64,000 nucleotides of DNA from Candidatus Borrarchaeum weybense (GTDB taxonomy: Archaea > Asgardarchaeota > Sifarchaeia > Borrarchaeales > Borrarchaeaceae), in NCBI GenBank assembly GCA_019057385.1, contig JAHQJS010000005.1, positions 64,001 through 128,000 on the forward strand, in the 5' to 3' direction. Numbering within the stretch: position 1 is the first letter of the stretch; each line of letters starts with the position of its first letter. The position numbers and the translations under genes are program-made. The notes below the pieces were generated by a model that made no database searches, was not told the origin of the DNA, and saw only the letters and a list, made by a program, of their open reading frames with translations. Positions 16,630 to 63,308 of this stretch are shown here, piece after piece.

Positions 16630-17472
16630 ATGTCCAAAAAAATGTCTGACCGAGTTAAGAGGATACAAAATCCTCAGAGAATTCTAAAAGTGGTTGCTTA
16701 TACCGCAATCGCCAAACCGTTAAACGGTTCTCTTCCTAGAAGTAATAATTCGCATTTTTTGAGATTATATCCTATAAAGTATTCTTACAGGAATGGTAAA
16801 GAGGAAAAGGAAGCTTTCTCTATATCGTATTTACTTAAAGGGATTAGAGGAGCTATTAGGCATCAAGTGATGAAGACTTGTTATGATGCTGGTGTGGAGG
16901 TGTGCCACACTAGCGATAAAGCGACCGATAAAGCGGGCAACAGTCTTCTTCCTAAAGGTTTTCATCTTTCGGGTTCTTGTAAGGGCAATGGTGAATGCAT
17001 AGTTCATCAAGTTTTTGGATCTATGGGTACTGAAGGTTTAATTTCTGTCTACGCAGAGCCAATTACAGCAATTTCTCATAAATCGGCTAAAACTGAAGTT
17101 AAAGTTCAAAAAGTCCATATTGCCACTGAAAATCGTGTTTGCATGACTTTTGATAACAAACCTGTCCAAGACTTTGGCGAGCGGTATTTTTCCGGTGAAT
17201 TTACCTTTGAAATTGATGTTACGCGTTGTACAAGTGAACAAATTGGTTTATTGATTGAATCAGTTATTAACATGCAAAGACTAGGCAGAGGATACAATGC
17301 GGGATATGGTAGGGTTCAAATTAAGCGATTTCAATTATTAGAGCGCATAATAAAGAGGATTCCGGAGTGGCAAGAAGATAACTTCATTGTCAAAGAAGAA
17401 CTTAACGAAATTTCGTTAAAAAACGAGGTTGTAGAGGCGATGGAGGCTTGGAATGCTTACGTTAATACTTGA
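16630..17472 (+). CDS. cas7: Cas7-family RAMP (Csm3-like), copy 1
   Basis: KGIRGAIRH helix, Cys/His-rich insert ending CIVHQVFG, thumb HIATENRV, G-rich loop LGRGYNAGYGRV. Confidence 0.8.
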   Translation: MSKKMSDRVKRIQNPQRILKVVAYTAIAKPLNGSLPRSNNSHFLRLYPIKYSYRNGKEEKEAFSISYLLKGIRGAIRHQVMKTCYDAGVEVCHTSDKATDKAGNSLLPKGFHLSGSCKGNGECIVHQVFGSMGTEGLISVYAEPITAISHKSAKTEVKVQKVHIATENRVCMTFDNKPVQDFGERYFSGEFTFEIDVTRCTSEQIGLLIESVINMQRLGRGYNAGYGRVQIKRFQLLERIIKRIPEWQEDNFIVKEELNEISLKNEVVEAMEAWNAYVNT

Positions 17473-18274
17473 AGGTCAAATTGTAACTCCAATTGTCACT
17501 AGGAAAACTGAATTTTATATGGAAGGATGTAAAGCTATAATTAAGCATCCAAGAAGACGTTATTACAATAAAATTAATGCATCTAAGCCGATGTATCCCT
17601 ATTCATTTCAGTGCTATTTAGGAGCTATTGAATTACACTTTAGATGTTCAAATACTGCAAAACTAAAACAGAAATTAAAAGATTTGTTGCAGATTAAAGC
17701 GATAGGGCGCTTTCATAGTGAAGGGATGGGATTGGTCCAATGGATCAAGGGCACCATACATTCGAATTATGAGCCAACTCACACAAAAAATACACGAACA
17801 CTCCGAATTCGCAAAGGTCTTCCTCATAATTTAACAAAAGATACCAAGAAACTGTTATTGTATGCTTTGCTTCATGATTTTGTTAATACGCCTAAACATA
17901 AATCTAAAATTTACATAGAACCGAATCTAGACGGCATAGCGTATTTATGCAACCATCATGATAAAACAGAAGACAGTTTCATTCAGTTATTTCAGAAATA
18001 TGACCATCTAGCGGCCATGATTACAAGAAAGATAAGGTCACCCAGAACTAATAGGTATAACTGGTCTTCCAATAGCAATATTAATTTTGAAAAATTAGCA
18101 ACAGAGATAAAGGAGGTGGCATCCAACATTTGGAAGTTGTATGATTACATCTATCAGAGTAAAGAACTAGAGCAATTAAACGAAAGTTTACAACATGGCC
18201 ACACGTCATTAAGAAATCATTTACTGGTGATAGTCAATTTAATAGTGCATGATTTTCAAAGAAATGAACTTTGA
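17453..18274 (+). CDS. Cas5-like RAMP fused to Cas10-type permuted HD domain, copy 1
   Basis: G-rich loop IGRFHSEGMGLV; LLHDF, H, NHHD, YDHLAA and C-terminal TSLRNHLL. Confidence 0.7.
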   Translation: MLTLILEGQIVTPIVTRKTEFYMEGCKAIIKHPRRRYYNKINASKPMYPYSFQCYLGAIELHFRCSNTAKLKQKLKDLLQIKAIGRFHSEGMGLVQWIKGTIHSNYEPTHTKNTRTLRIRKGLPHNLTKDTKKLLLYALLHDFVNTPKHKSKIYIEPNLDGIAYLCNHHDKTEDSFIQLFQKYDHLAAMITRKIRSPRTNRYNWSSNSNINFEKLATEIKEVASNIWKLYDYIYQSKELEQLNESLQHGHTSLRNHLLVIVNLIVHDFQRNEL

Positions 18275-18413
18275 AGGGTTTTGCACACCAAGGGACAGAT
18301 TGCCGTTGCCCTGCTAAATGTGAGCAGAAGGGCTTGATAGTAGGGCGTTAAAGGTTTCTGCTCTTTACCCCGCACCCAAAATATTATATTGGATTGGGGA
18401 TCCTTAAGGCACT

Positions 18414-49953: not shown

Positions 49954-50025
49954 ATAAAGGGGAGACAAAATAACAATACTTTGAAAAACTAATGGTGTTT
50001 TGTCACAACAAATTATTATTTTGAT

Positions 50026-50340
50026 GGTTAGACTTCTTTAACCATATAAATGGTTGGTTAGATATATATTACCTATAGGTGAACCTACTATGAGCATTAT
50101 CATCAACACCAAATACACAAACAACAAACCCTATTATTACGTGTATGTAGTCTATGGTGAAGGCAATAAAGAAACCCATTACATTGGTAGTGCAAAAAAC
50201 CCAATATCATATGAAAAAGCATTGTATAAAGTCAAAGAGATCCTTAAACAAGAAATGCAGAAGAAACTTCACCATGCGGAAACACGAGCCGAGAACTTAA
50301 AGAATGAATACCTTTCTAAATAGGTTAAATATATCTAACC
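50026..50340. repeat. three GGTTA-N8-TAACC palindromic sites
   Basis: 50026-50043, 50056-50073 (TTACC variant), 50323-50340. Confidence 0.7.
50090..50323 (+). CDS. small basic putative DNA-binding protein
   Basis: KYTNNKPYYYVY...KETHYIGS, a beta-sheet motif seen in archaeal mobile-element proteins; AGGTGA RBS. Confidence 0.6.
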   Translation: MSIIINTKYTNNKPYYYVYVVYGEGNKETHYIGSAKNPISYEKALYKVKEILKQEMQKKLHHAETRAENLKNEYLSK

Positions 50341-50384
50341 TATATATGCTGCGTTTTTCTATTGTTATGTTTTCTATAATAGAT

Positions 50385-50969
50385 TCATACTATTTTGACT
50401 GTTCTAAATGCTTTTCTCATTGACTTAATGCTTTTCCGCGCGATTGATTCAGGATAGAATCCTAGAACCGCCTGATTTAGTGCTTCTAGGGATACTTCTC
50501 CGCTTATTCTGCAGAAAGCACCTAAAATTCCTATGTAATTATTACCGCCATAATTTTGATTTGTTAGGCTTTCATCTATTTCATTCATTGAAACTTTGTC
50601 AACATCTACTGTTGCTGTGGAGAATCCTATGCCGAAGAGTTCTATTAACTCGTATGGGGAATATGATGAATTGACAAGGAGAATGCCTGACCTTTTTAAT
50701 CCCTCTGTAACGTCCAATATTTTCAAAAACGAATCATCCAGTACTATGGTGTAATTTGGGCAGCAGATCTGTGGATAAGTAGATAAAAGTTTCTTGCTAA
50801 TTCGAATGGCAACTTTTAGAATCACTTCTGGTGTTGTGGTTTTAGGTTGAAACACTTGGGAACACTTATTCCTATAAGCTATTGCCTCAGCAAGGATCTC
50901 TGCTAATGTAACTACATTCATGTCTCCTCGACCGATTAAGAGAATTTCTTTGATTTTATAAAATGACAT
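50385..50969 (-). CDS. divergent 2-oxoacid:ferredoxin oxidoreductase gamma-subunit-like protein
   Basis: EILLIGRG, IRIS, PNYTIVLD, GLKRSGILLVNS; orphan with no alpha/beta genes adjacent. Confidence 0.7.
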   Translation of the reverse strand: MSFYKIKEILLIGRGDMNVVTLAEILAEAIAYRNKCSQVFQPKTTTPEVILKVAIRISKKLLSTYPQICCPNYTIVLDDSFLKILDVTEGLKRSGILLVNSSYSPYELIELFGIGFSTATVDVDKVSMNEIDESLTNQNYGGNNYIGILGAFCRISGEVSLEALNQAVLGFYPESIARKSIKSMRKAFRTVKIV

Positions 50970-51188
50970 GAGGGTACAACCTTTCTTAGAATAAATTGAA
51001 TCCTGTGTTTTGCTCCTTTTTATCGCATACTTATACTTTGAAATTAAAATTTAGACACTTTTTAATGGATATTTTTGTCTTAAGAACGCAGATTCTAGTA
51101 AAAACATTTGAATAGCGATTTAAAATTAGATCAAATCTTAAAACTTTTTAAGTAATAATAATTGACTTTGTAAATAGCAAATTTTTTC

Positions 51189-51608
51189 ATGGAGGAAAAA
51201 TTTATGCAATTCTCTCAGTTCTCTATAGCATTCCTGATTGACTTTATTGTGTTTGTAGCTATTGTGGCAGTTTCTGTAGCCATAACGTGCTGGCTTTGGG
51301 GCTATTCGAGATACAAATTTGCTTGGGGGTCAAGTATCGTTACTGGAATTGTAGCCGCTGTCGTATGGATTATATTTAGAATGTTACCGCTCGGTCGTTA
51401 TACCTTGGCTATTGCATTTGTTGCAGTCTTTGTAGTGATTCTTCTTGCACTTCGTCACTTTTGGCCTAAATTTTCTGAATGGCCAACAGCGTTTCTCGGT
51501 ACGCTGGTTTGTATCGTTATAGTCATTGTCATTTGGCTGGTAATTTCATTTATCATTGCGGGGCTGGGTTTGATAGCAGGATATCTGCCCCCACTGAGTA
51601 TATTCTAA
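51189..51608 (+). CDS. membrane protein
   Basis: Four hydrophobic segments. Confidence 0.65.
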   Translation: MEEKFMQFSQFSIAFLIDFIVFVAIVAVSVAITCWLWGYSRYKFAWGSSIVTGIVAAVVWIIFRMLPLGRYTLAIAFVAVFVVILLALRHFWPKFSEWPTAFLGTLVCIVIVIVIWLVISFIIAGLGLIAGYLPPLSIF

Positions 51609-51774
51609 CACCAGAATCTAAAAAATTCTTTTCTTTTTTTTTAAGACGGTCATATGAGTTTTTTGAGAAGCTAAAATGAACTAAGAGATAATAAAATTCA
51701 AGACAACGAATGAAGAGCTGAAATAGATTATTATAAAAAAAAGGCGAAAAAGAGAAAAAATGGATCGGGATAGA

Positions 51775-52098
51775 CTATGTAACTTGTGCAATTATTGCAA
51801 GAATAGCGCCTATTATAACGAGTAATCCCCCGAGACCAAGCACAATTATACCAAAGATTAGGGCAAGTATTATGTATACCCACTCATCTAACTGATCTGC
51901 AACGCGGAGAACAATAATTATTATTCCGATAATTATTGATATAGCCGCTGCAATTAAGCCACCAAGAGCACCTAGCGAACTTGGAACACCAAGTCCGATT
52001 CCCACGAAACTCAACGCTCCTTGGACAATCATAAGGATTGCACCGACAATCACTAGTATCCATGCCGCTAATAAAATACCACCAGACGGTCTAGCCAT
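51775..52098 (-). CDS. small membrane protein
   Basis: Highly hydrophobic Gly/Ile-rich ORF; GGTGA RBS. Confidence 0.65.
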   Translation of the reverse strand: MARPSGGILLAAWILVIVGAILMIVQGALSFVGIGLGVPSSLGALGGLIAAAISIIIGIIIIVLRVADQLDEWVYIILALIFGIIVLGLGGLLVIIGAILAIIAQVT

Positions 52099-52340
52099 AC
52101 AATCACCATTTCAATATCTTATTTCAGGTTAGGATGAACCCGATTTCCTAGTATATAACTTGTTCGCATTCAAGCTTGTAGAGAACCATGGACTTAAACA
52201 AATATCATAGAAGAAATCAACTTCAAGAGAATCAAATAATAACTATTTGAACACTATCGTTTTCTAGATCGAATAAGTGCCAATAACAAAGAATAAGGAT
52301 TCTCTAAAATTATATAGAAAAAAAGGAAAAAATAATAGGA

Positions 52341-53699
52341 TTATACTTTTGGCAAGATTTCGAGCGATTTATCGATTTGTTCCTGTGGCATTTCATAGTC
52401 AACAAGGTTTCCAGCGAGATATTCTTCATATCCTTTTAAATCAAAATGACCGTGTCCGCTGTAATTAAAAGCAATCACTTTTTCTTCACCAGTTTTTTTA
52501 CATTTTTGTGCTTCTTTGATCACTGCAACGATAGCATGATTGGTTTCTGGCGCTGGAACGATCCCTTCTGTCTTTGCAAAGATCACTCCTGCTTCAAAGG
52601 TTTCTATTTGATGGTATGCAACGGACTCCAAGATACCTTCTTTTTGCAGTAGACATAAACTGGGGGCGTCTCCGTGGTATCTTAATCCTCCAGAATGAAT
52701 TGGTGGTGGGACAAACTCGTGCCCAAGAGTGTACATTTTCACTATAGGAGCTAACTTACCAGTATCTCCGTAATCGTAGGCATAAGGTGCTCTTGTCAAT
52801 GTAGGAACCGCCTTCGGCTCAACAGCAATAAATCGGATATCTTTTCCTTTCAATTTGTCTGGAACAAACGGATAAAAGAACCCTGCAAAATTACTGCCGC
52901 CTCCAACGCAGCCAAGCATCATATCAGGATATTCCCCAATCTCTTCAAACTGTTTTTTAACCTCCTGACCTACAATTGTTTGATGTAGCAGGACGTGATT
53001 GAGCACGCTTCCTAGACTGTACTTAATTTTATCGTCGTTTAGAGCATCCTCCACAGCTTCAGATATTGCTAAACCAAGGCTTCCAGGATGGTCAGGATTT
53101 TCCTTTAAAACACTTCGTCCGACCTCTGTATTATTAGACGGACTTCGGAAAACTTCGCTGCCATAAGTCTGCATTAATACGCGTCTATACGGTTTCTGGT
53201 CGTAACTGACACCAACCATATATACACGGCATTTTATGTCAAAAAGGGCACATGCGAGGGAGAGCGCACTTCCCCATTGACCTGCACCTGTTTCAGTTGT
53301 AATTTGTTCTACACCTTCTTTCATTGCAAAATACGCTTGGGCGATAGCTGTGTTGGGCTTATGACTTCCCGTAGGGCTGAGATCCTCTCGCTTATAGTAG
53401 ATCTTAGCTGGCGTATCCAAATACTCCTCAAGCCGTTTTGCCCGATATAGTGGGCTTGGTCTACCTAATCGCCTGTAAGCCTCTTGTAACTCTTCAGGAA
53501 TAGGAATGTATCTTTCTGGGGACATCTCCTGTTGTAGAAGTGCAACAGGGAACAAAGGCATTAAATCAGGAGGACCACAAGGTTCTTTCGTTACAGGGTG
53601 TAACGGAGGAGGGAGAGGGGCTGGTAGGTCGGCTAATACATTATACCATTGAGTTGGTAACTCATCAAGGTTTAAGACAACTTTTACACCATCATACAT
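52341..53699 (-). CDS. trpB2: tryptophan synthase beta, TrpB2 type
   Basis: [41 protein letters not shown]. Confidence 0.95.
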
Positions 53700-54035
53700 T
53701 TTCAATCACCTCAAATTTTTTAGATTTCTATTTTTATTTTTCAAAAAAGTTGGAAACGAGGGGGTATCAATAGCTGTTGAAATAGTGGGCTACTGCCACC
53801 GCCAAGAATGCCAGGGATGCCAAGAAAAGTTTGAAAAGCTCAAAGCTAAGTCAATTAAAAATTCAGGAGTAAAATCTGTTGGAGTTTTATAAAAACCTTT
53901 TTCCGGGCAGGGTGGTTTAGCTTCAAGACTGAGAGAAAAGAAAAGACATTTTGTTAAAGCAAATCCCATTGGCGCAATCAAACCACCTAATCTGCCTATT
54001 TCTTTAGGCTTGTTATTTAAATCTTTCTCTGTTTT

Positions 54036-54183
54036 ATTACATTTTTCGTCCCCTGCGAGTCATCCATTCCCAACAATTGAGGCGTCGGACCTCTGAATTG
54101 GTTCAGTCTCATGCACAAGAACGTGTCCCACGTGATATACGAGGAACATACCGCCTTGTAACTCATGTATTCTCTTTCAAAGA
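54036..54183 (-). repeat. long structured repeat R3 (148 bp), putative guide-RNA scaffold
   Basis: 9 mismatches versus 55447-55594; TTTATATA box just upstream on the minus strand (54194-54187). Confidence 0.9.
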
Positions 54184-54351
54184 TTCTATATAAACACCGC
54201 GATTCTGCTAAACCAACTTTTTCTTACCACTTTTCGATCCTGAAAGCAAAGCAGAGCTGAGTTTTCTACAGCTTATTTTTATCCCTCATTAAGTTGCTTC
54301 CTGAAAAAACGAATTTTTACTGCCACTCCTCTCGAAAACAATTTAACGTTG

Positions 54352-54534
54352 TCACTTCTGTCGATTTTGCATCGCTCCCCACCTTGAAGATTTCTTCCTG
54401 TTCGTCAAATTTAACTCATGATGTTCCGCTAGGAGCCGATACAAGTTGTAACGTGGCAATAAAAAGTTGCATTCGAGGCAACAAAATGTTGTTTTAACAG
54501 ATTCAATACAATGATCCATTCTTGTCATGTTCAC
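54352..54534 (-). CDS. possible small ORF coupled to the Cas5-HD gene
   Basis: GTGA overlap with the upstream stop; no recognisable motif. Confidence 0.25.
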   Translation of the reverse strand: MNMTRMDHCIESVKTTFCCLECNFLLPRYNLYRLLAEHHELNLTNRKKSSRWGAMQNRQK

Positions 54535-55343
54535 AAACCACTATTCAAGTCGTCAAGATAGAGATTTACCATTAATAAGAGATGATTTTTCAAAGACGAA
54601 AACCCAAATTTTAACGCTTCGTTGATCTTATCAAGTGCTTGACATTTTCGAATAAAAGTATAAAGGGCATACGGGGAATATTGGCACTTTTCTATCTCTC
54701 TTTTTAATGCATCGAAATTTATCTTTTCTAGTTCAGTCACACGATAACGCGTGAACGCAGACCATCTAAATTTTCGAGAAATCATTGCAGAAAGTCTATC
54801 ATAATACTGAAGAAGAGGGAGAAGAGGCAATTCAGCCTCATCTGTATCATAGTTGTGGTGATTTTCCACAAACTTACGGACTTCTTCATCAAGTATATTA
54901 ACTTCAGAGTAGATTTTGCTCTGATGTCGATTAGTGTGTACGAAATCATGTAGTAACATAGCTATAACTAATGTTTCTTGCACGTTGGAGAGTTTAGGGA
55001 GTTTTTTACGGATCTTAATTGTTCTTGAAATATAGAGCGGATTTTTTTTGAGTTTACTAACAGAAGTCCATAAGATTTGCCCCATCCCTTCACATGTATA
55101 ACTCCCAACACTGTCAATGGCGAGCGCTTCTTCAAGTTTATATTCTGGAACGATGAACTCAACATTTCCATACCATGCCCTAAAGGTCATAGGCGCACGT
55201 CTTTGCCCTACAGTCAATTTTCCGAATACCCTAGGACGACCATTTATGGTCATCGCTCCAATATCGGCAATTCCAAAATGCCTGCGCCTTGAAACGATAG
55301 GAGTTTTTGTATAACCCATTAATTTAAAGTATTTTTGTGACAT
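54531..55343 (-). CDS. Cas5-like RAMP fused to Cas10-type permuted HD domain, copy 2
   Basis: TPIVSR, VGSYTCEGMGQI G-loop, IRKKLP, LLHDFVHT..HQSKIY, NHH, YDRLSA, SSLKNHLL; collinear with 17453-18274. Confidence 0.7.
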   Translation of the reverse strand: MSQKYFKLMGYTKTPIVSRRRHFGIADIGAMTINGRPRVFGKLTVGQRRAPMTFRAWYGNVEFIVPEYKLEEALAIDSVGSYTCEGMGQILWTSVSKLKKNPLYISRTIKIRKKLPKLSNVQETLVIAMLLHDFVHTNRHQSKIYSEVNILDEEVRKFVENHHNYDTDEAELPLLPLLQYYDRLSAMISRKFRWSAFTRYRVTELEKINFDALKREIEKCQYSPYALYTFIRKCQALDKINEALKFGFSSLKNHLLLMVNLYLDDLNSGL

Positions 55344-55446
55344 TTAATCCCCTCTTTTTAGGTCTTATCTCCTCTTGAAACAAAAGAGAGGAGATACAAA
55401 CCTTGCCAAAGTAAACGCTTTTGCAACTTTTATTAGTAAAGTGGGT

Positions 55447-55594
55447 ATGACATTTATCGTTCCTTGCGAGTCATCCTTCCCCAACAATTGAGGCGTCGGA
55501 CCTCTAAATTGGTTCAGTCTCATGCACAAGAACGTGTCCCACGTGATATACGAGGAACATACCGCCTTGTAACTCATGCATTCTCTTCCAAAGA
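55447..55594 (-). repeat. long structured repeat R2 (148 bp), putative guide-RNA scaffold
   Basis: Direct repeat of 54036-54183; internal hairpins GAGG-N7-CCTC and ACGTG-GGA-CACGT. Confidence 0.9.
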
Positions 55595-55717
55595 GATACT
55601 ATTATTAATATAGTACACGTACAGGCGTCAAGAAGGAAGGAGAGGATTAACCTCTCCCTAAAGTAGGACGGTGTTAAAGCAACATCCGTTGGCGCAATCA
55701 AAACCGCCTGTATTTTG

Positions 55718-55806
55718 ATGACATTTTTCGTCCCCTGCGAGTCATCCTTCCCCAACAATTGAGGCGTCGGACCTCTAAATTGGTTCAGTCTCATGCACAT
55801 GAACGT
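55718..55806 (-). repeat. repeat R1 (89-bp core of the long repeat)
   Basis: Near-identical to the minus-strand 3' 89 nt of R2 and R3. Confidence 0.9.
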
Positions 55807-55868
55807 ATCACTCACAAAAGTAAGTGATAGTCCGTTATGAGATGAGAAAAAAGAATGAGATGGAGTTA

Positions 55869-56687
55869 TCATGCAGTCACCGTTTCTTCGTTTTGTTCGT
55901 TTTGTTCGCTAAAATTCAAAGAATCCCTCCAATCCTCGATATTACTGAGAGAGATAGGTTTTTCAGTTGCTTTTTCGACAATTTTATAATTTCCTTTGTT
56001 ATCTTCCGCGACATTGCGAGTAGTTTCGATCTTCTGGAGGTCGAAATTGAAAATCGTGACGCGACCATAACCACTCGCTCGTCCTGCGCCCAGAATCTCA
56101 ACATATAATAGCGATTCCATGAGAAACTTGATTTCTGTATTCGTTAATTTGGTCACATCAATGTAAAAACTGAAATAGCCGCTGAAATAACTCTCCCTAA
56201 AATCTTGGATAGCTATACCATCATAGGTGAGCGCAATTCTGTTTTCACTAGCGATATGGACTTTTTGGACTGGAACTTCAGTTAAGTATTCTTTATGTTT
56301 GATTGAGGCAATAGGATCTGCTAACACATTAATAGAAGATTTCTCGCCAAATGCACCAAAGATTTTTCGCAGAATGCAGGGAGGATCACATGTACCAAGT
56401 GCATGAAAACCAGAAGGGATGAGTCCAGTGCCATCTTTGAATGTCTCCTTTTCACTGGTATGACATACCTCGATACCGCACTCCTGAGCGAGCGCCATAC
56501 AGGCATGTCTTAGCATCCCTCGAATACCTTTGATATAATAGAATTTAGTGTTGAAGGTTTTGTCTCCATTCACATACGGAAGTTCTCCTAACAAAAGCAT
56601 GGTCGAATTTTTTTGAATCGAGGCATTAAGAGGCTTAGCAATAGGGGTAAAAGCATGAACCACTAACTGTTTTTTGATTTTTCTCAT
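55869..56687 (-). CDS. cas7: Cas7-family RAMP (Csm3-like), copy 2
   Basis: IAKPLN, KGIRGMLRH, EVCH...C...CILRKIFG, HIASENRI, LGAGRASGYGRV; collinear with 16630-17472. Confidence 0.8.
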   Translation of the reverse strand: MRKIKKQLVVHAFTPIAKPLNASIQKNSTMLLLGELPYVNGDKTFNTKFYYIKGIRGMLRHACMALAQECGIEVCHTSEKETFKDGTGLIPSGFHALGTCDPPCILRKIFGAFGEKSSINVLADPIASIKHKEYLTEVPVQKVHIASENRIALTYDGIAIQDFRESYFSGYFSFYIDVTKLTNTEIKFLMESLLYVEILGAGRASGYGRVTIFNFDLQKIETTRNVAEDNKGNYKIVEKATEKPISLSNIEDWRDSLNFSEQNEQNEETVTA

Positions 56688-56721
56688 GTTTCTAACCTCA
56701 ATTATAGTTAGTACAAGTACC

Positions 56722-56776
56722 TATATAAACCTTGCTCAAAATAAACACTTTTCCAACTTTTATTAGTAAATTGGGG
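56722..56776 (-). promoter_or_regulatory. cas7 promoter region (TTTATATA box), matched by the guide after R2
   Basis: TATA at 56729-56722, 35 bp upstream of the ATG; GAGGT RBS. Confidence 0.7.
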
Positions 56777-56780
56777 AATT

Positions 56781-56866
56781 AATTGACTTCCTTCTGAGAA
56801 AATAAGTATTTTAAACGGCTTTTAGCAAAAAAATCATTAAAAAAGTAGAACCCCCTTTATAAATAA
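56781..56866. repeat. 86-bp direct repeat, copy A
   Basis: 66/86 ungapped identity to 62135-62220. Confidence 0.7.
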
Positions 56867-57033
56867 CAACGTATTGAGACGATTTGTATTATTGTCTTTT
56901 TAAAAGAATAGTTGAACAATTTAACAAAATGAAACATTCTTGAAGATTCAAAAGGAATAAATTTATGGTCTCAACTGAACTAACACACGTTTTTAAAAGA
57001 ATATGTATACTATAACTGATTCTTAATTAAGTA

Positions 57034-60000
57034 TTAGGGTAAAAGATCCTTTACAGCAACTGGAGGACCTTTTTTCGGTGGTTTATAGATGCCTTCCAGA
57101 TGTTGAAACCGCTCATACATCAAGTGGAGAGTTTCCTTATCTGGAGCGTAGATAAAGGGGACAAAGCGCTTTTTTTCCAACAAAAAACCCTTGAGTTGTA
57201 GTGCGCACCGCCTTATAGCTTCCTTTACTGTCATATATTCTTCTAGATAGTATACCTTTTGAGCGAGTATGTTGTTAACCAATCTCTCAACTTTGTAGTG
57301 TCCATTCCAGTTAAGATGATAGAATCGTTCACGCTCTAGTGTTTTACGTCGAATGAAATCAGTTTTCGCAAATTTATCATGTATACATGCAAAGATGAAG
57401 GCGAACCTGAACAGGGGAAGAAACACCTCTCGGAAGTCAACAACAGTGCCAAGAAAAGATCTTTGTTTTTTCTTATAATGCAATATCAGTTCGTTGGGTA
57501 CCCAGGAGAACCCTGCCTCAGCGAGTGCTTTTCGACAGTAAAAGTTAAGGTGTCGATAGACAGCATTGAGTGCAGCACTAAAGGGAGTTCGCGCCTTTGC
57601 TTCCCCCAGAAGCACCACTGTGGCAATATAGCGGTCGAGGGTACGACTGATGATTTCAAAATAACTGCCCTGAAGCAAATGCTTGGGAACCTCCCAGGCA
57701 ATGCTTTCCACTACGCCTTCAAGACCGCGAAGGTTGTCAATATTGCCCCGCCAATAGAGAAACGTATACGCCACGCGATCCAGTAGTTGGGATAAGAATT
57801 CCTGTGCCTCTGCAGGAGATAATAATCCCTCTTTTTCAAAATGGAGAATTGCATTGGCGAGTCCCATATTTTTACTCATCACCAGCAACCTCGCTAATAA
57901 CTTGCCTCGTTCCGTCTCTCTGAGTTGCTGGGCGGCGTGTTTCAGTTCATCGGCTAATTGTTGTTTCTCGGGTGTCAGTGTATGCTCTACAAAGAATCTG
58001 CCTTCGGGCGAATTAATATCAATGAGTTTTTTACCATAGTTCTTACGAACCTGTTGCGTAACTTCTCCACCCTCGATGATGATGTGACGGATAGCACCGA
58101 TTAAATATCGCTGTGTTGTTTTCCCGTCCTTTAAGGAATGAGTAAATCGTTTTTTCTTAATATCAAGCTGTTCACCGCACTTGACACGGATGATTCGTTT
58201 TGGTCGTCGAATGTAAACCCTTGTTTTTTTAACCCGCGGGACATAATTTCCAGCCTTGCCTAAAAGCAATTCCAACCCTTTTAACATCAAACCTCGGCGG
58301 CCTGGTTTCACCACTAGGTCACCTTTCATGGTTAAATAATAGCGGGAATTGCATTCAGGACAGACGGTGTATTCGTTATAGCGTGACGGCAGTTCCACTG
58401 TACCGTCGGAGTTGCAGAAGTAGCATGGAGTATCATCAAGTGTTTCTTGTAAGACACGAATTGTGCGCTTTTTTAACTTCCGCGCTTTCGTATGATATTC
58501 GCAGGCACCCATCTTTGGTGCGACATAAGACTTTCTTGCTCGCCTTCCAACTTTTGTGTTATACTTACGATTCAACACGCAAATATGTGCACGTTTCGAT
58601 CTGCGACGGTCCTTCATGGAGTTTATCCGAAAGAAGCCACATGAGCCACAGGTGAGGCGCAGATGTTCAGGAAGACTCACATTCACATCTGCCACATAGA
58701 TTTTGGGGCGACCTCGTAACTGCCCTTGAGAGATAAACTGGATTTTTCCCTGGATTCCTAACCGCTTGACATGTTTAACTACCGTGGTGTAGTGAACTGG
58801 TCTTTTATATTGCTTACGAACTTTTGTCGTAATTTGTTTATAAGAAATAAGTTTATACTGTTTAATAAAGGTGTAGATTGCTTCCTGAAGTCCTGGATAT
58901 GGTTTCGGTCTATGTTTTGGATACCAGCGTCTCCTTCTGCCTTTGTTCCCTCTTTCAACTTCAGGCTCTTTGTATTCAGGATTTAGTTTTGAGGTAAGTT
59001 CTTTAGCAACCCTTGCCGCCCTCGGGTCGCTGCGCCCCAGATAGTCATAACTTGCTTCTGCGATCCATGACGCCGTCTTTCTATGTGCTTCTGCATCACC
59101 CGGTCTTATGTTTACCCGAGTTGCCGCTTCTGTGACTGAAGAACCCTGACTGAGTAACCATACGAAAGAGGTATATTGTTGGGTGGTGTATCGTGTGGTG
59201 CTGCTCACTTCATGCATGCTTCGCCCGATTAGTGTAATCACGTGCCGGGAGAATTCCCGTTCTGAGGAGCAGTGATGTGTGGCAAAAAAATTCTTGATCC
59301 TGATGGCGGTTTTAGTCGGCAGTAAAAATTGGCTGGCCCAGCGTCCTTTGGCTGTTGCACTAAACTTTCCACCATTTCTTTTGATAAAACCTTCCTTGAT
59401 AAGTGTGTGAAGGATTCCCTCTCTTTTTTTCTTCGGTTCATCCTGCTTAGGTCGAGCTAACAGTTTCTCTCTTAGTTGTTGTGTAAAGTCTTTCAACTGG
59501 TCGTGGGTGAATGGTGTCAACAGTAAGCGAAGCTCTCCATTTTTGATTCCGCGTGTAGTGGTGTTCTTCTTGACCCACATGAAGAATTTTCTCGTTACGC
59601 GTTTCAAGTCGAATGGGAGAGAGCCTTCGTGCGTTTCGCGCAATAAGGAGAGTAAATGAAGTTCGTTATTGAGCCAGCAAAGCTCCTCCTCATGAGTCAA
59701 GAGTGCGGTATTCATTAGTTCGGACCAATTCTGTAGCAACGCTTTGTGTTGATGCCAGAAGTAATGTCTTTCAAGTTTGAGGAGCAATTGTTTCGTGGAT
59801 ACCGAGCCTCTAGCTATCAGGGTGAGTACAATATCTGCCAAAGAAGAACGAGCTTGGCTTACTATACGATGTTCTTTGACTATCAATTGTCCTTCAACGA
59901 TTTGAATATCCTTTTGCTTCAAAATCTCTTGGTCGTCCCCCACGAAGATCAGATCGGCATAGCCCACCCGATGATGGCGCGGTCGTGCCGCCCTGCCGCT

Positions 60001-61125
60001 CAATTGTATCAACAGTTGAGAGCTGAACATTCCTGCATCGGCAATTATCACCCTTTTGATCGGAAAGTCCACCCCCTCTCCGTATTGAGTCGTTGATAAA
60101 AAGACCTGAAATTCACCCTTCTTAAGTTTTCTCATAGCTTTTTGTTGTTTCTCTTTACTGAGCCCAGCATGGCTGTAGCCAACGGTTAGATTGAGCCCAA
60201 AACTCTTTAGAAAGGTCTGCAATTCTTCAGCGCGTTGTTCAACCTGATTTCGTGTGTAGCAAAAGATATGCACGATTTTAGTCCGCTGATCATCGCCATA
60301 TGAGTGTAGTTCAAAGGTCTTTTTGATCAAGCGAGCGAACAGAAAGCGCTTTTTTCGTTCGATCTGCTCTATTGTGCTGCCTGAAACTCCAAAAGACGAT
60401 ACAATAAGTTTCGACCGCCGTTCTTTGGTATGGATAAGTTGAGCATCGAGCCAGCTTGCCAGTTCCTCAGCATTCCCCAAAGTAGCCGAGAGATAGATGA
60501 TGTGAGGACGAGGTCGCAACCACGCTTTCGCATTGACAATCGCGGTTTCTAGACACGTACCCCGCCCTTTGTTACCCAGATTATGCAGTTCATCGACTAC
60601 AATTAATCCTATCCTGTCTAAAAACGGATACTCGAAATGTTTGGCTAGCAGCCCATTGAAGGATTCGTAGGTGATGATGAGGATATCCGCAGTTTCAAGC
60701 TCTTCAGGAGACGGTCGGTTATCTCCGCTGACCCGGAGGATGGTGCAGATGTCGTGATACCACTCTTTGAACCTGTCATACATCTGATCGATCAGCCGTT
60801 TGGTCGGCTCAAGGATCACACAGCGCATCCCTTTTCCAAGGATGCGGGTGGACACTATTTGGGCGATCAAGGTTTTTCCAGAAGCGGTGGGAGTGTATAA
60901 CACTTTGTCATGTCTTTGCTTACCAGAAAAGCATGCCTCCCATTGAAAGTCATAGAGAAGTTTAATGTCAGCCTGTTCCAATTGTTGACGTATAAATTCG
61001 TAGTTTAACCCTCTTTTCGTCATTGTAAGGAACTGTCCCCTCAATCCCTGTGTCTCACTTATGATGGTTGAAAAGTTCTTTATAAAGAGGGCAAACCTTT
61101 GGATCACTGGCTTGATAACTGTCAC
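57034..61125 (-). CDS. Ski2/Hel308-like SF2 helicase - wHTH - Zn fingers - Cas1-like integrase fusion
   Basis: Helicase motifs PTASGKT, VVDELH, LSAT, HAGL, GEGVDFP, QLSGRAAR; Cas1-like LRGLEG, PFSAALNAVY, ILH, VVDFREVF. Confidence 0.8.
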   Translation of the reverse strand: MTVIKPVIQRFALFIKNFSTIISETQGLRGQFLTMTKRGLNYEFIRQQLEQADIKLLYDFQWEACFSGKQRHDKVLYTPTASGKTLIAQIVSTRILGKGMRCVILEPTKRLIDQMYDRFKEWYHDICTILRVSGDNRPSPEELETADILIITYESFNGLLAKHFEYPFLDRIGLIVVDELHNLGNKGRGTCLETAIVNAKAWLRPRPHIIYLSATLGNAEELASWLDAQLIHTKERRSKLIVSSFGVSGSTIEQIERKKRFLFARLIKKTFELHSYGDDQRTKIVHIFCYTRNQVEQRAEELQTFLKSFGLNLTVGYSHAGLSKEKQQKAMRKLKKGEFQVFLSTTQYGEGVDFPIKRVIIADAGMFSSQLLIQLSGRAARPRHHRVGYADLIFVGDDQEILKQKDIQIVEGQLIVKEHRIVSQARSSLADIVLTLIARGSVSTKQLLLKLERHYFWHQHKALLQNWSELMNTALLTHEEELCWLNNELHLLSLLRETHEGSLPFDLKRVTRKFFMWVKKNTTTRGIKNGELRLLLTPFTHDQLKDFTQQLREKLLARPKQDEPKKKREGILHTLIKEGFIKRNGGKFSATAKGRWASQFLLPTKTAIRIKNFFATHHCSSEREFSRHVITLIGRSMHEVSSTTRYTTQQYTSFVWLLSQGSSVTEAATRVNIRPGDAEAHRKTASWIAEASYDYLGRSDPRAARVAKELTSKLNPEYKEPEVERGNKGRRRRWYPKHRPKPYPGLQEAIYTFIKQYKLISYKQITTKVRKQYKRPVHYTTVVKHVKRLGIQGKIQFISQGQLRGRPKIYVADVNVSLPEHLRLTCGSCGFFRINSMKDRRRSKRAHICVLNRKYNTKVGRRARKSYVAPKMGACEYHTKARKLKKRTIRVLQETLDDTPCYFCNSDGTVELPSRYNEYTVCPECNSRYYLTMKGDLVVKPGRRGLMLKGLELLLGKAGNYVPRVKKTRVYIRRPKRIIRVKCGEQLDIKKKRFTHSLKDGKTTQRYLIGAIRHIIIEGGEVTQQVRKNYGKKLIDINSPEGRFFVEHTLTPEKQQLADELKHAAQQLRETERGKLLARLLVMSKNMGLANAILHFEKEGLLSPAEAQEFLSQLLDRVAYTFLYWRGNIDNLRGLEGVVESIAWEVPKHLLQGSYFEIISRTLDRYIATVVLLGEAKARTPFSAALNAVYRHLNFYCRKALAEAGFSWVPNELILHYKKKQRSFLGTVVDFREVFLPLFRFAFIFACIHDKFAKTDFIRRKTLERERFYHLNWNGHYKVERLVNNILAQKVYYLEEYMTVKEAIRRCALQLKGFLLEKKRFVPFIYAPDKETLHLMYERFQHLEGIYKPPKKGPPVAVKDLLP

Positions 61126-61176
61126 AAAATCCCCTCTTTATAAATTAATTATAACCTATTGACAGTAGTGGCAACA

Positions 61177-62124
61177 ATGTCTTTCGAAGAACACCTTAAG
61201 CAAGGAAATGAGTTTTATGAACAGAAACAATACCGAAGGGCGTTAAAACATCTCACAAAGGCTGCAAAATTAAAACCAAAAGACTATCAACCTTGGCAGA
61301 AATGTGGAGATATTTATTTTACTTTGCACATCTATCAGAAGGCAATCAAATGTTGGAAAAAGGCGTTTGCGAAAAAACCTGACGAAATGTCACCCTTGGT
61401 CGGCATAGCTAATTCATACGGATTCTTGGGCGAATACGAAAAAGCCATCAAATACTGTCAAAAGATATTGAATACACAACCAAACTTTCCTTTAATTAAA
61501 CTCTTGATGAGCAATATAAAAGATGTACAAGAACATTCACCTCTTACCGATGAAGAGGTAGCAAAAATAAAAGAAGCAGATTCAAAAAAGGTCATCACAA
61601 GTGTCGTAATCCGTGGTATAGACTATTATGTTATTAATAACACATTAAAACTTCGCGATCTAAATATCAAAGATATTAAACACATCAAAGGATTGGAAAA
61701 TCTTACCAATCTCCAAGAACTTGATCTAAGCGGGAATAAAATATCAGTAATTGAGGGATTAGACACACTTTGCAATCTTCAAGAACTTAATTTAAGTGCG
61801 AATAAAATTACTATGATACAAGGTTTAGATACCCTTACCAAGTTACAAGTTTTAGAACTTTACGACAACCAGATCAATAGGATAACTGGACTGGATAACC
61901 TTACGCAATTGAAAAAGTTATATCTTAATGGGAACTCGATAGAAACAATTGACGGAGTGGAACAACTCACGAATTTGGAAGTTTTAAGCCTTGCAGATAA
62001 CCCTCTATGTGAGGAAGATCGACGCGTGTACGAACGAAGTGTGACAGCTATGGATGCCCAGTATTGTGTAAAATATTGCCAGAAAAAGATGTCGATATTT
62101 TCTACCAAGAGTCCTAATAACTAA
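61177..62124 (+). CDS. TPR + leucine-rich repeat (SDS22-like) protein
   Basis: Three TPRs followed by LxxLxxLxLxxNxIxxIxGL repeats. Confidence 0.9.
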   Translation: MSFEEHLKQGNEFYEQKQYRRALKHLTKAAKLKPKDYQPWQKCGDIYFTLHIYQKAIKCWKKAFAKKPDEMSPLVGIANSYGFLGEYEKAIKYCQKILNTQPNFPLIKLLMSNIKDVQEHSPLTDEEVAKIKEADSKKVITSVVIRGIDYYVINNTLKLRDLNIKDIKHIKGLENLTNLQELDLSGNKISVIEGLDTLCNLQELNLSANKITMIQGLDTLTKLQVLELYDNQINRITGLDNLTQLKKLYLNGNSIETIDGVEQLTNLEVLSLADNPLCEEDRRVYERSVTAMDAQYCVKYCQKKMSIFSTKSPNN

Positions 62125-62134
62125 ATAGAGAATC

Positions 62135-62220
62135 AATAGACTTCCTTTTATGATATAAAGTGATTAAAAAGGCTTTTAGTTGAAAAATCAAAGAAAGAGT
62201 AGAACCCTCTTTGTAAATAA
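62135..62220. repeat. 86-bp direct repeat, copy B
   Basis: 66/86 ungapped identity to 56781-56866. Confidence 0.7.
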
Positions 62221-62612
62221 TATGAAGACTAAGAATGTAAGTTGATGAGATCTGAAAATATTTATTTTGTTGATTTACAGATCTCTTCAAATTAATTAGT
62301 CATAATTAACTTTTCAGAAAATTTATGTAGGAGAATCCATATTACATTTTAGTTAATCATAAGAAGCGATATTAAGAAGTTACTATATGAAAGATTATTC
62401 TGATTTAAATTTTACTTTCACCCATCACACTCTAACTCTTATTTGGGTTACATTAAATGTATTAATTATGAAGTTTAGTTGTGCATTTTTGTCAAAATAA
62501 AAATGATAATAATGCAAGTATGTGCTATCAAATAAGATGAGGGGCAGAGTTTACTCTTTTTAATGGGGAAATTCAATCTTCATCTTAACAATGATTTTAG
62601 AGAGTGATAAAC

Positions 62613-63308
62613 ATGGGAGCGATCGAAGGGTTTGTAGTAGGTATTGCCTCTAATGTAGCTTATGATTTAATCAAAAAGCTTTCAAGAATTGAAATATTCA
62701 AGCAGATACCAATAAGAACTAGTTTCAGTCTTGTAATTAATTTTAGAGAAGGTATCGAGGTTATTGAAATTGATAATAATTTGACTAAGACATTTCGAGA
62801 AGAGTTTGGAATCAAAAAAGATCAGAAGAAAGTACCATTTATTGAAATTGATAATCTAAAATTATATGTACTTATAGACTACCATTATCTTGAAGATAGC
62901 GAAAAAATCATTGATGCTTTGAATGATATCTTTGAAATAAGAGAGGAAGATGCAGTTCAACCAGAATTCATAGATGCATTAACCATACAAATTTTTCCCG
63001 ATGATACGAAAGAATTAGATGACATATTAATGGTTATGGATGTTTTGAAAGATATAAAGAGACTTATTCAACGTGATTACAATATTGAAAAAGATTTGAT
63101 CTGGCTACGCTTGGATGTTGATGATGAAAAATCAGCGATCTTAATACAAAAGAAACTTGTTGAAAGTTTTCCCGAATTAATTATTATTAAAAATAAAGAT
63201 ATGCAGAATAATGTTTTTTTGAAAATAAAAGATACTAGTGACTTAGAATTAAAACAAATAATAGATGTTCTAAAATCTAACAGAATCAGAAAAATACTAC
63301 ACATTTGA
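62613..63308 (+). CDS. hypothetical protein
   Basis: Long AT-rich ORF, no recognised motif. Confidence 0.6.
   Translation: MGAIEGFVVGIASNVAYDLIKKLSRIEIFKQIPIRTSFSLVINFREGIEVIEIDNNLTKTFREEFGIKKDQKKVPFIEIDNLKLYVLIDYHYLEDSEKIIDALNDIFEIREEDAVQPEFIDALTIQIFPDDTKELDDILMVMDVLKDIKRLIQRDYNIEKDLIWLRLDVDDEKSAILIQKKLVESFPELIIIKNKDMQNNVFLKIKDTSDLELKQIIDVLKSNRIRKILHI

Follow-up and report, generated by a model that had tools for sequence, protein, structure and literature searches.

Large structured repeats beside ARAMP genes in Candidatus Borrarchaeum weybense are probable genes for guide RNAs

Three structured repeats, R1, R2 and R3, in the genome of the archaeon Candidatus Borrarchaeum weybense are probably genes for guide RNAs of an ARAMP system, a reading to which we give a probability of roughly 0.7. 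The repeats lie on the minus strand of a stretch of 64,000 nucleotides (nt) that we call the window (positions 64,001 to 128,000 of contig JAHQJS010000005.1, GenBank assembly GCA_019057385.1), and positions are those of the window unless a contig is named. ARAMP systems (Makarova et al. 2020, as given in the reviews PMC8730458 and PMC12669027) are described as lacking an array, as type III derivatives that have their own distinct Cas1, and as enigmatic in mechanism. Our reading draws on a sequence family of repeats, covariation within that family, its linkage to two ARAMP genes, a 6-nt register in the mismatches of guides, matches of guides to promoters and insertion sites, and insertion polymorphisms between genomes. 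We refer to the locus in the window as module M1, to the genome as G000, and to a sister genome as G004. The features of M1 are as follows.

57034-61125, minus: HelCas1, a helicase-Cas1 fusion, 1363 amino acids as the longest open reading frame (Pfam, NCBIfam, Cas1 profile)
56723-56775, minus: promoter region of RAMP272 (Cas7-like), including TTTATATA; target of the R2 guide (match to 55394-55445)
55869-56687, minus: RAMP272, a Cas7-like RAMP protein, 272 amino acids (Pfam RAMPs; AlphaFold2 model)
55717-55864, minus: R1, an A-type scaffold, core in common to about 55806 (cmsearch 139 bits; alignments A2 and A4)
55672-55709, minus: R1 guide, positions 8-45 (match to host flank 53950-53987)
55639-55660, minus: GC hairpin, then a T-rich tract, 3' of the R1 guide (read from the sequence)
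55446-55594, minus: R2, a scaffold with a B-type 5' part (cmsearch 154 bits)
55394-55445, minus: R2 guide, match to the cas7 promoter (register-aware comparison)
55366-55396, minus: hairpin 5' of the P270 ribosome-binding site, overlapping a TATA-like box (reading of modules)
54531-55343, minus: P270, a RAMP-HD protein, 270 amino acids, earlier named cas5-HD (motifs, structure comparison)
54187-54196, minus: transcription factor B recognition element (BRE)/TATA box 5' of R3, with TTTATATA at 54187-54194 (kept in modules M1, M2, M3 and M6)
54035-54183, minus: R3, a B-type scaffold, the last conserved feature of the module (cmsearch 156 bits)
53988-54034, minus: 47-nt stretch from R3 to the insertion junction (absent from the G004 empty site)
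53950-53987, minus: host flank matched by the R1 guide, a candidate attachment site (homology to the G004 empty site starts at 53987)

The repeats belong to one dispersed family of structured elements and are not specific to this locus. Using nhmmer and a covariance model, we found 25 copies of the scaffold in the 4.18-Mb G000 genome. The family is mostly tied there to two ARAMP genes, with 21 of the 25 copies adjoining RAMP272 or P270 genes in fixed positions and a fixed orientation. Searches with tblastn gave about ten modules, some of them truncated, with the order (HelCas1)-RAMP272-scaffold A-P270-scaffold B, in which A-type and B-type scaffolds have a core in common and differ in their 5' parts. 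As stated in the preliminary description of this DNA, R2 and R3 have 9 differences, 5 of which are A/G changes on the minus strand (94% identity over 149 nt). What R1 has in common with R2 and R3 is confined to the 3' core (about 90 nt); it has a different 5' part and carries a P1 hairpin of other sequence and the same structure as in related scaffolds. All three repeats were found by cmsearch at 139-156 bits (E about 1e-28 to 1e-32). M1 resembles its paralogues M2 and M3 only as far as 54032-54035, precisely the 3' end of R3. Separately, about 300 nt between the P270 stop codon and R3 (54200-54500) are missing from M2 and M3. Logan DNA contigs (three runs) included the paralogous form without 299 nt at 54200-54500, seen in a contig of run X1; these contigs are too fragmented by paralogues to reveal gain or loss of units.

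A gene between two repeats is the standard layout of the module, because about ten modules here, and modules in relatives, carry it. The gene between R2 and R3 does encode a RAMP domain fused to an HD domain, as had been proposed. The alternative offered along with that proposal, that the repeats are Cas1 integration sites that captured a gene-sized spacer, fails on the recurrence of the RAMP-HD gene between scaffolds A and B, or beside the RAMP gene, in about ten modules. The repeats, at about 150 nt with 2-4 units per locus and a gene in between, are not of the type found in arrays of 25-40-nt repeats. There was no short-repeat CRISPR array in 50000-60000, no Rfam match to a CRISPR direct repeat in the window, and nothing at gathering thresholds in an Rfam scan of the window.

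The scaffold has a taxonomic range that coincides with that of the ARAMP genes. The covariance model found 3-21 copies in all four same-genus genomes, 33 copies in one same-class genome (G005), and no copy in 35 other genomes of the phylum. Homologues of RAMP272 and P270 are all from Asgard archaea (Borrarchaeum, Promethearchaeota, and Heimdall-, Hod-, Hermod- and Sifarchaeia records). Many copies in relatives are solitary, for example in G004 and G005, and the number of units varies, with three tandem A units in module G004:C9, an extra unit in M1 and in M5, and units that are nearly back-to-back in genome G001. In G005, matches to P270 are only fragmentary, some with an in-frame TGA; this could mean that its scaffold copies are remnants, that the assembly has gaps, or that the proteins work in trans.

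Covariation supports the predicted fold of the scaffold, mainly in one hairpin. We ran the covariance-model comparison that had been suggested earlier, with 72 copies in alignment A4, which was itself fitted to the model, and covariation was present. In this alignment 93% of cells were paired, compared with 85% after shuffling, and there were 169 double-change cells compared with 57 (none of 500 shuffles reached 169). Sliding the partners lowered pairing to 38-57%. Compensatory changes were found in 8 of the 9 pairs of hairpin P1 and in two pairs of the nested GAGG-N7-CCTC hairpin, which is present as had been described. Changes in the closing stem (ACGTTCT / GGGACG) were mainly of the wobble type (G-U versus A-U or G-C), with isolated double changes only, and the differences between R2 and R3 in this stem are indeed compatible with G-U pairing. 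The G-U pairs are consistent with the gene strand (minus) only.

The R2 guide matches the promoter of RAMP272, and its mismatches fall on a 6-nt register. Guide (55394-55445) and promoter (56723-56775) match in the same orientation, with the TTTATATA box covered, and differ at guide positions 5, 23, 29 and 35 only. In M1 there were mismatches at 4 of 6 register positions (5, 11, 17 and so on) and at 0 of 33 other positions (Fisher p 2e-4). Mismatches had the same distribution in module M8 (7 of 8 register positions, 2 of 43 others, p 2e-6) and in the diverged module G004:C9 (8 of 9 and 4 of 45, p 4e-6). The bases at every sixth position were kept in guide-to-guide comparisons and not in guide-to-target comparisons. 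Where paired positions differed between lineages, guide and target were identical within each lineage at 9/10 to 17/17 of these positions. When all 25 guides were compared with the G000 genome without gaps and with the register taken into account, promoter targets alone were found; the matches to insertion flanks described below needed gapped local alignment or sister genomes, and several guides had no match in the G000 genome. The 6-nt pattern would fit a guide held by Cas7 proteins and not a duplicated promoter. The R2 guide is in the sense of the gene strand and therefore would pair with the template strand of the DNA and not with the mRNA, which points to DNA binding by guides of this type. 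In all guide-target matches that we saw, the guide was in the same sense as one DNA strand.

Individual transcription is plausible for the B-type units. A BRE/TATA motif, GGTGTTTATATAG, is conserved 5' of B-type scaffolds in four modules (M1, where the scaffold is R3, M2, M3 and M6), in agreement with the earlier observation that R3 has its own TATA box. Hairpins had also been described 3' of the R1 and R2 guides, and both are present. However, the R2 hairpin overlaps the TATA box of the downstream P270 gene, and some of the apparently guide-terminating hairpins after solo copies are host terminators: for the solitary copy in a 446-nt insertion, the empty site shows the following hairpin to be part of the host gene. 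A hairpin of differing sequence occupies the position of the R2 hairpin in most modules (by reading, with no formal count).

The R1 guide matches host DNA at the end of the inserted module. In G004, whose flanks are 94% identical, 11 nt stand in the place of C5:117988-128548 of G000. The insertion is 10.56 kb long and extends from window position 53988 to 64548, past the end of the window, and no duplication was identified at it. Positions 8-45 of the R1 guide match the host flank beginning at the insertion junction (53987). The alignment scores 52 (null maximum 32) and includes substitutions at positions 11 and 29 and three single-base gaps. The matched flank is overlapped by a short open reading frame (53790-53981, minus strand) that has a Trp-rich C-terminal end, lies upstream of a TrpB-like gene (52341-53705), and is kept in G004. 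We also considered an inverted match of the R1 guide to the RAMP272 coding region (56297-56322), which aligns poorly by eye and is probably due to chance, and a diverged long duplication of the left flank in the 47 nt 3' of R3, which was at chance level (141 of 500 shuffles scored as high) and was rejected.

There are five cases with a mapped junction, M1-R1 among them, in which an element-borne guide matches the element's own insertion site. In M3 (a 6.9-kb insertion with a duplication of about 7 nt), positions 4-35 of the B guide match the G004 empty site at the junction with one mismatch (position 11). In the C3:65701 unit, guide positions 6-43 match the G004 empty site at its junction with two mismatches (positions 23 and 25). 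In the G004:C95 cassette (2.57 kb, without HelCas1, with the 7-bp duplication TCATTAA), positions 7-34 of the B guide match the G000 empty site on its reverse strand, at a distance of 10 nt from the duplication, with one mismatch (position 29). In the G004:C24 solo unit, a 506-nt insert, the guide matches the G000 empty site with two mismatches (positions 8 and 17). When these four were pooled, 4 of the 6 mismatches were on the 6-nt register (p 0.007). Extra changes are present in the resident target of M3, of C3:65701 and of G004:C95, and in all three the guide keeps the sequence of the empty (ancestral) genome; the flank of M3 itself has 6-7 changes in the 36-nt site, compared with a background divergence of about 7%. 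Two further guides also match host DNA. The M2 guide copies a segment of an ftsY-like coding sequence, with differences mostly at third codon positions, and M2 itself is inserted outside that gene. The A2 guide of G004:C9 agrees with G000 C5:332707-332749 except for mismatches at positions 27, 29 and 41 (junction unmapped).

In most copies outside M1 the scaffold stops 4-7 nt short of the host flank, and the guide is then adjoining host DNA, as in omegaRNAs. At least eight scaffolds in sister genomes are followed, after 5-8 nt, by sequence homologous to G000 that continues for more than 50 nt, usually more than 100 nt; genome scans gave no scaffold match at these G000 sites, which were not inspected singly. 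The solitary G000 copy mentioned above ends a 446-nt insertion that has an A/G-rich duplication and keeps 216 nt of the upstream region of a cassette, and from its sequence this insertion is a deletion derivative of a RAMP cassette.

The proteins of the module are consistent with a Cas7-based complex and an integrase. In HelCas1, Pfam found DEAD/Helicase_C at residues 59-382 and Cas_Cas1 at 984-1261, and the helicase is Hel308-like according to NCBIfam. The Cas1 domain is highly diverged: a search of 1.8 billion representative proteins gave only 28 relatives, most of them long and with the domain near the C-terminus. Of the 7 that were scanned with Pfam, 4 have a DEAD helicase domain. A search of solved structures with phmmer gave no match to this domain and a profile was needed, which matched the casposase 6opm_A (E 4e-16) and Archaeoglobus fulgidus Cas1 4n06 (E 1e-15); the E, H and D positions of Cas1 are invariant or nearly so across the sequences of the profile. 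The longest HelCas1 reading frame opens at GTG, and there is a TTTATAAA box 5' of an ATG at 61023. This ATG is probably the real start, because paralogues align only from about residue 35-47 and because of the box upstream of it; similarity to paralogues at the DNA level begins about 110 nt upstream of residue M35.

RAMP272 matches Pfam RAMPs, and its homologues are named Csm3. Its AlphaFold2 model (predicted local distance difference test, pLDDT, 86) matched type VII Cas7, Cas7-11, Csm3 and type I/IV Cas7 in Foldseek (E 2e-8 to 1e-5), and by this model RAMP272 is a Cas7-family protein with a Cas7 fold. Its repetitive acidic NEQNEQ tail is encoded by short tandem CGTTTTGTT units (plus strand) at 55878-55909. 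P270 had no match to a Pfam family. Its alignment has the G-rich loop of RAMP proteins followed by H..HD..H..HH..D motifs. In its model (pLDDT 87), VIA-align found residues 1-100 to be RAMP/RRM-like (Z 6-7.4) and residues 119-270 to resemble the HD domain of Cas10/Csm1 (Z 8.6 to 6ifk_A); Foldseek against PDB gave weak RAMP matches only. Of Cas10, only an HD domain is represented, with neither a Palm nor a cyclase part. The idea that P270 and RAMP272 are paralogues was rejected. A predicted complex of RAMP272 with P270, made through the RAMP domain of P270, scored 0.69 compared with 0.14 for the best control, a mark that 58 of 80 solved complexes attain, as do 2 of 110 mismatched pairs. Three runs agreed in at least 88% of contacts, with a partner pLDDT of at least 71. 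The model supports binding of RAMP272 to the RAMP domain of P270, and the score may mirror likeness to Csm3-Csm4.

Transcription of the units, assembly of the RNA with protein, binding to DNA and repression are what we infer from these results, as is whatever part the guide may have in insertion or retention. The predicted RNA would consist of a scaffold of about 125-150 nt (a variable hairpin P1, a closing stem and the nested GAGG/CCTC hairpin), a linker of 4-9 nt and a guide of about 28-50 nt, except that terminal copies would use the contiguous host flank as guide, with no defined 3' end. A filament of RAMP272, capped by P270, would hold the guide and flip out every sixth base, and the complex would pair with DNA. 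The R2 guide would pair with the BRE/TATA region of its own cas7 promoter, and by analogy with the cr-like RNAs of type I systems the R2 unit probably represses that promoter. R1 would be an attachment-site guide, because its guide matches chromosomal DNA starting exactly at the end of the 10.6-kb insertion, and R3 would be the terminal scaffold. HelCas1 is likely the integrase of the inserted element. More tentatively, and with rather more doubt than confidence, we suggest that ARAMP modules are RNA-guided mobile elements in which the Cas7/RAMP-HD complex marks a site and HelCas1 integrates the element, or re-integrates or retains it, beside that site. Guides could direct insertion, as in CRISPR-associated transposons (CASTs), or could be taken from the flank for retention or homing, as in omegaRNAs.

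Several observations weigh against guide RNA genes. Covariation is mostly in one hairpin, the closing stem varies by wobble-type changes, and the alignment was fitted to the model. A single copy of R3 folds no better than shuffled sequence (z 0.04), so the structure rests on comparative data. A-type scaffolds such as R1 are without a promoter of their own and are preceded by the stop codon of RAMP272 with a T-run, and the RAMP272 transcript may be their source. The preliminary description had proposed individually transcribed scaffold-plus-guide units that are more like omegaRNAs than a Cas6-processed array. The units themselves are supported by covariation, the 6-nt register, terminal scaffolds and the BRE/TATA boxes of B-type copies; individual transcription would probably not extend to the A-type units. 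No target was found for the 47 nt 3' of R3 (53988-54034). Target-site duplications are of unequal length (about 7, 12-15 and 22 nt), the element occurs in either orientation relative to the matched site, and the M2 target is about 125 nt from the M2 junction; therefore, no single insertion geometry is established. The modules in one genome are related by descent, and the truly independent cases are fewer than the copies. Finally, a literature search found no paper describing an RNA component of ARAMP; the search did not cover the original ARAMP description, which may mention a conserved non-coding element.

The main rival explanation is that the repeat acts as DNA only. On this view a Cas1-mobilised element would be recognised at its right end through the repeat, whose hairpin would be read as single-stranded or cruciform DNA as at IS200/IS605 ends, and the guide-like matches would arise incidentally when the target is duplicated at integration. 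The position of scaffolds 4-7 nt from insertion ends, the presence of target-site duplications, the 22-nt stretch of the matched site that is duplicated around the G004:C24 insert, and the scaffold-3'-like remnants in which M3 and C3:65701 end all favor this explanation. However, it does not explain the 6-nt periodic mismatches to promoters and the agreement of guide and target within lineages, the BRE/TATA boxes 5' of B-type scaffolds, the internal A-type scaffolds far from element ends, or the M2 guide that copies an ftsY-like coding segment, and in the inverted G004:C95 a simple duplication cannot put a copy 3' of the scaffold. We consider it unlikely that the repeat is only an element end, and such a role may coexist with a role as RNA.

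We think it somewhat less likely again that the locus is a CRISPR-like adaptive array with giant repeats, in which HelCas1 adds spacers from viruses or plasmids beside the scaffolds for immunity. The varying number of units (G004:C9, M1, M5, G001), the conserved catalytic residues of Cas1, and the several guides without a genome match are what such an array would show. However, every guide source that was traced is on the host chromosome (a promoter, an insertion site or an ftsY-like gene; viral and metagenome collections were not scanned), and many copies are solitary, with nothing but the adjoining flank as their guide.

It is highly improbable that the repeats are cis-regulatory RNA, or duplicated promoter or untranslated-region DNA, without guide function, such that the R2 match reflects two genes sharing a duplicated promoter. 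The match does lie at a similar distance 5' of both start codons (about 89 and 102 nt), with TATA-like boxes included. A duplicated promoter should give differences that are random or constrained by promoter function, and mismatches confined to every sixth base in three lineages are not expected from it; it would also leave the solitary scaffolds and the insertion-site guides unexplained. The least probable explanation, an unrelated miniature inverted-repeat transposable element that happens to sit in the locus, agrees with the genome-wide dispersal of the repeat (25 copies in G000, many solitary copies in G004 and G005) and is already contradicted by its linkage to ARAMP genes (21 of 25 copies in fixed positions and orientation), by the solitary copy that is a deletion derivative with the upstream region of a RAMP cassette, and by a taxonomic range equal to that of the ARAMP genes. 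The preliminary description had named such an unrelated, dispersed element as a ground for refutation; of this, only the dispersal holds.

The modules share features with several known systems. The M1 gene set is a member of ARAMP, with an Asgard host, diverged Cas7 and Cas5-like RAMP genes, a nuclease domain, a distinct diverged Cas1, and no canonical array. It differs from ARAMP as described in having, beside the genes, a conserved structured (predicted) RNA with guide-like 3' segments, and in modules that behave as insertions. The array of 25-40-nt repeats and the Cas10 of class 1 type III-like systems are lacking here. The modules resemble OMEGA systems (IS200/IS605 TnpB, IscB) in that a long structured scaffold, with the guide on its 3' side, lies at the end of the element and adjoining host DNA is the guide. 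In contrast to OMEGA, the effector would be a Cas7-like filament with RAMP-HD, the 6-nt register is a class 1 feature, and the candidate mobilising enzyme is a helicase-Cas1 fusion and not TnpA; Pfam and NCBIfam scans found no RuvC-type single effector domain in the module proteins.

As in CASTs (types I-F3, I-B, I-D and V-K), an element-borne guide matches a chromosomal site beside the insertion, and the M2 guide matches a conserved gene, ftsY-like, with insertion outside it. In contrast to CASTs, where the matched site is about 50 bp away, the matched site here abuts the insertion (0-10 nt plus the duplication), both orientations occur, and the repeats are about 150 nt. No Tn7-like TnsA/B/C or TniQ was found among the open reading frames scanned in 54531-63308, and the insertion extends to 64548. 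The cr-like RNAs, tracr-L and CreA (Shmakov et al. 2023, bioRxiv 10.1101/2023.03.03.530964) have a guide, encoded in the locus, that pairs partially with the effector promoter, and every sixth position is not expected to pair. The R2 guide likewise matches the cas7 promoter of its own locus partially and in register. Those RNAs come from the short repeats of canonical type I, II and V systems, whereas here there is a long scaffold and no array. The modules resemble casposons in the Cas1-family integrase candidate with conserved catalytic residues, which matched 6opm_A about as well as CRISPR Cas1, and in insertions with target-site duplications. They differ in the fusion of Cas1 to a Hel308-like helicase and in the presence of RAMP effector genes and predicted RNAs. 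No PolB was found among the open reading frames scanned in 54531-63308, and no terminal inverted repeats were seen by eye at the ends of M3 or G004:C95, where no formal search was made.

Other elements in the window and the genome were noted. A second, diverged pair of genes is at 16630-18274 (plus strand), encoding a RAMP protein of 280 amino acids (42% identical) and a RAMP-HD protein of 273 amino acids (34%) in overlapping genes. The covariance model found no scaffold of the R1-R3 family near this pair; just 3' of it, about 18275-18400 is G+C-rich by eye and might hold a different RNA. G000 also encodes a canonical Cas1 at C4:153602-154474 (270 bits to PF01867), and an ordinary CRISPR-Cas system may exist alongside the ARAMP modules. 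To the left of M3 on C3 there is a repeat of about 320 nt (L013:10618-10937) with dozens of copies at 84-98% identity in same-genus genomes, which is probably a separate small mobile element.

Current CRISPR classification treats ARAMP and the related HRAMP as array-less derivatives whose mechanism is possibly non-programmable. Based on the sequence comparisons above, ARAMP looks programmable and linked to DNA insertion. A conserved family of guide RNAs, if true, would make ARAMP testable and programmable, with the element's own promoter and own insertion site as the targets of its guides. It would also join a class 1 effector architecture, omegaRNA-style scaffolds at element ends, and Cas1 as the integrase of a whole element, a connection that bears on the evolution of CRISPR adaptation modules and of RNA-guided transposition. 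The predicted Cas7-based DNA binder with a long scaffold, together with the helicase-Cas1 fusion, would be candidates for new tools.

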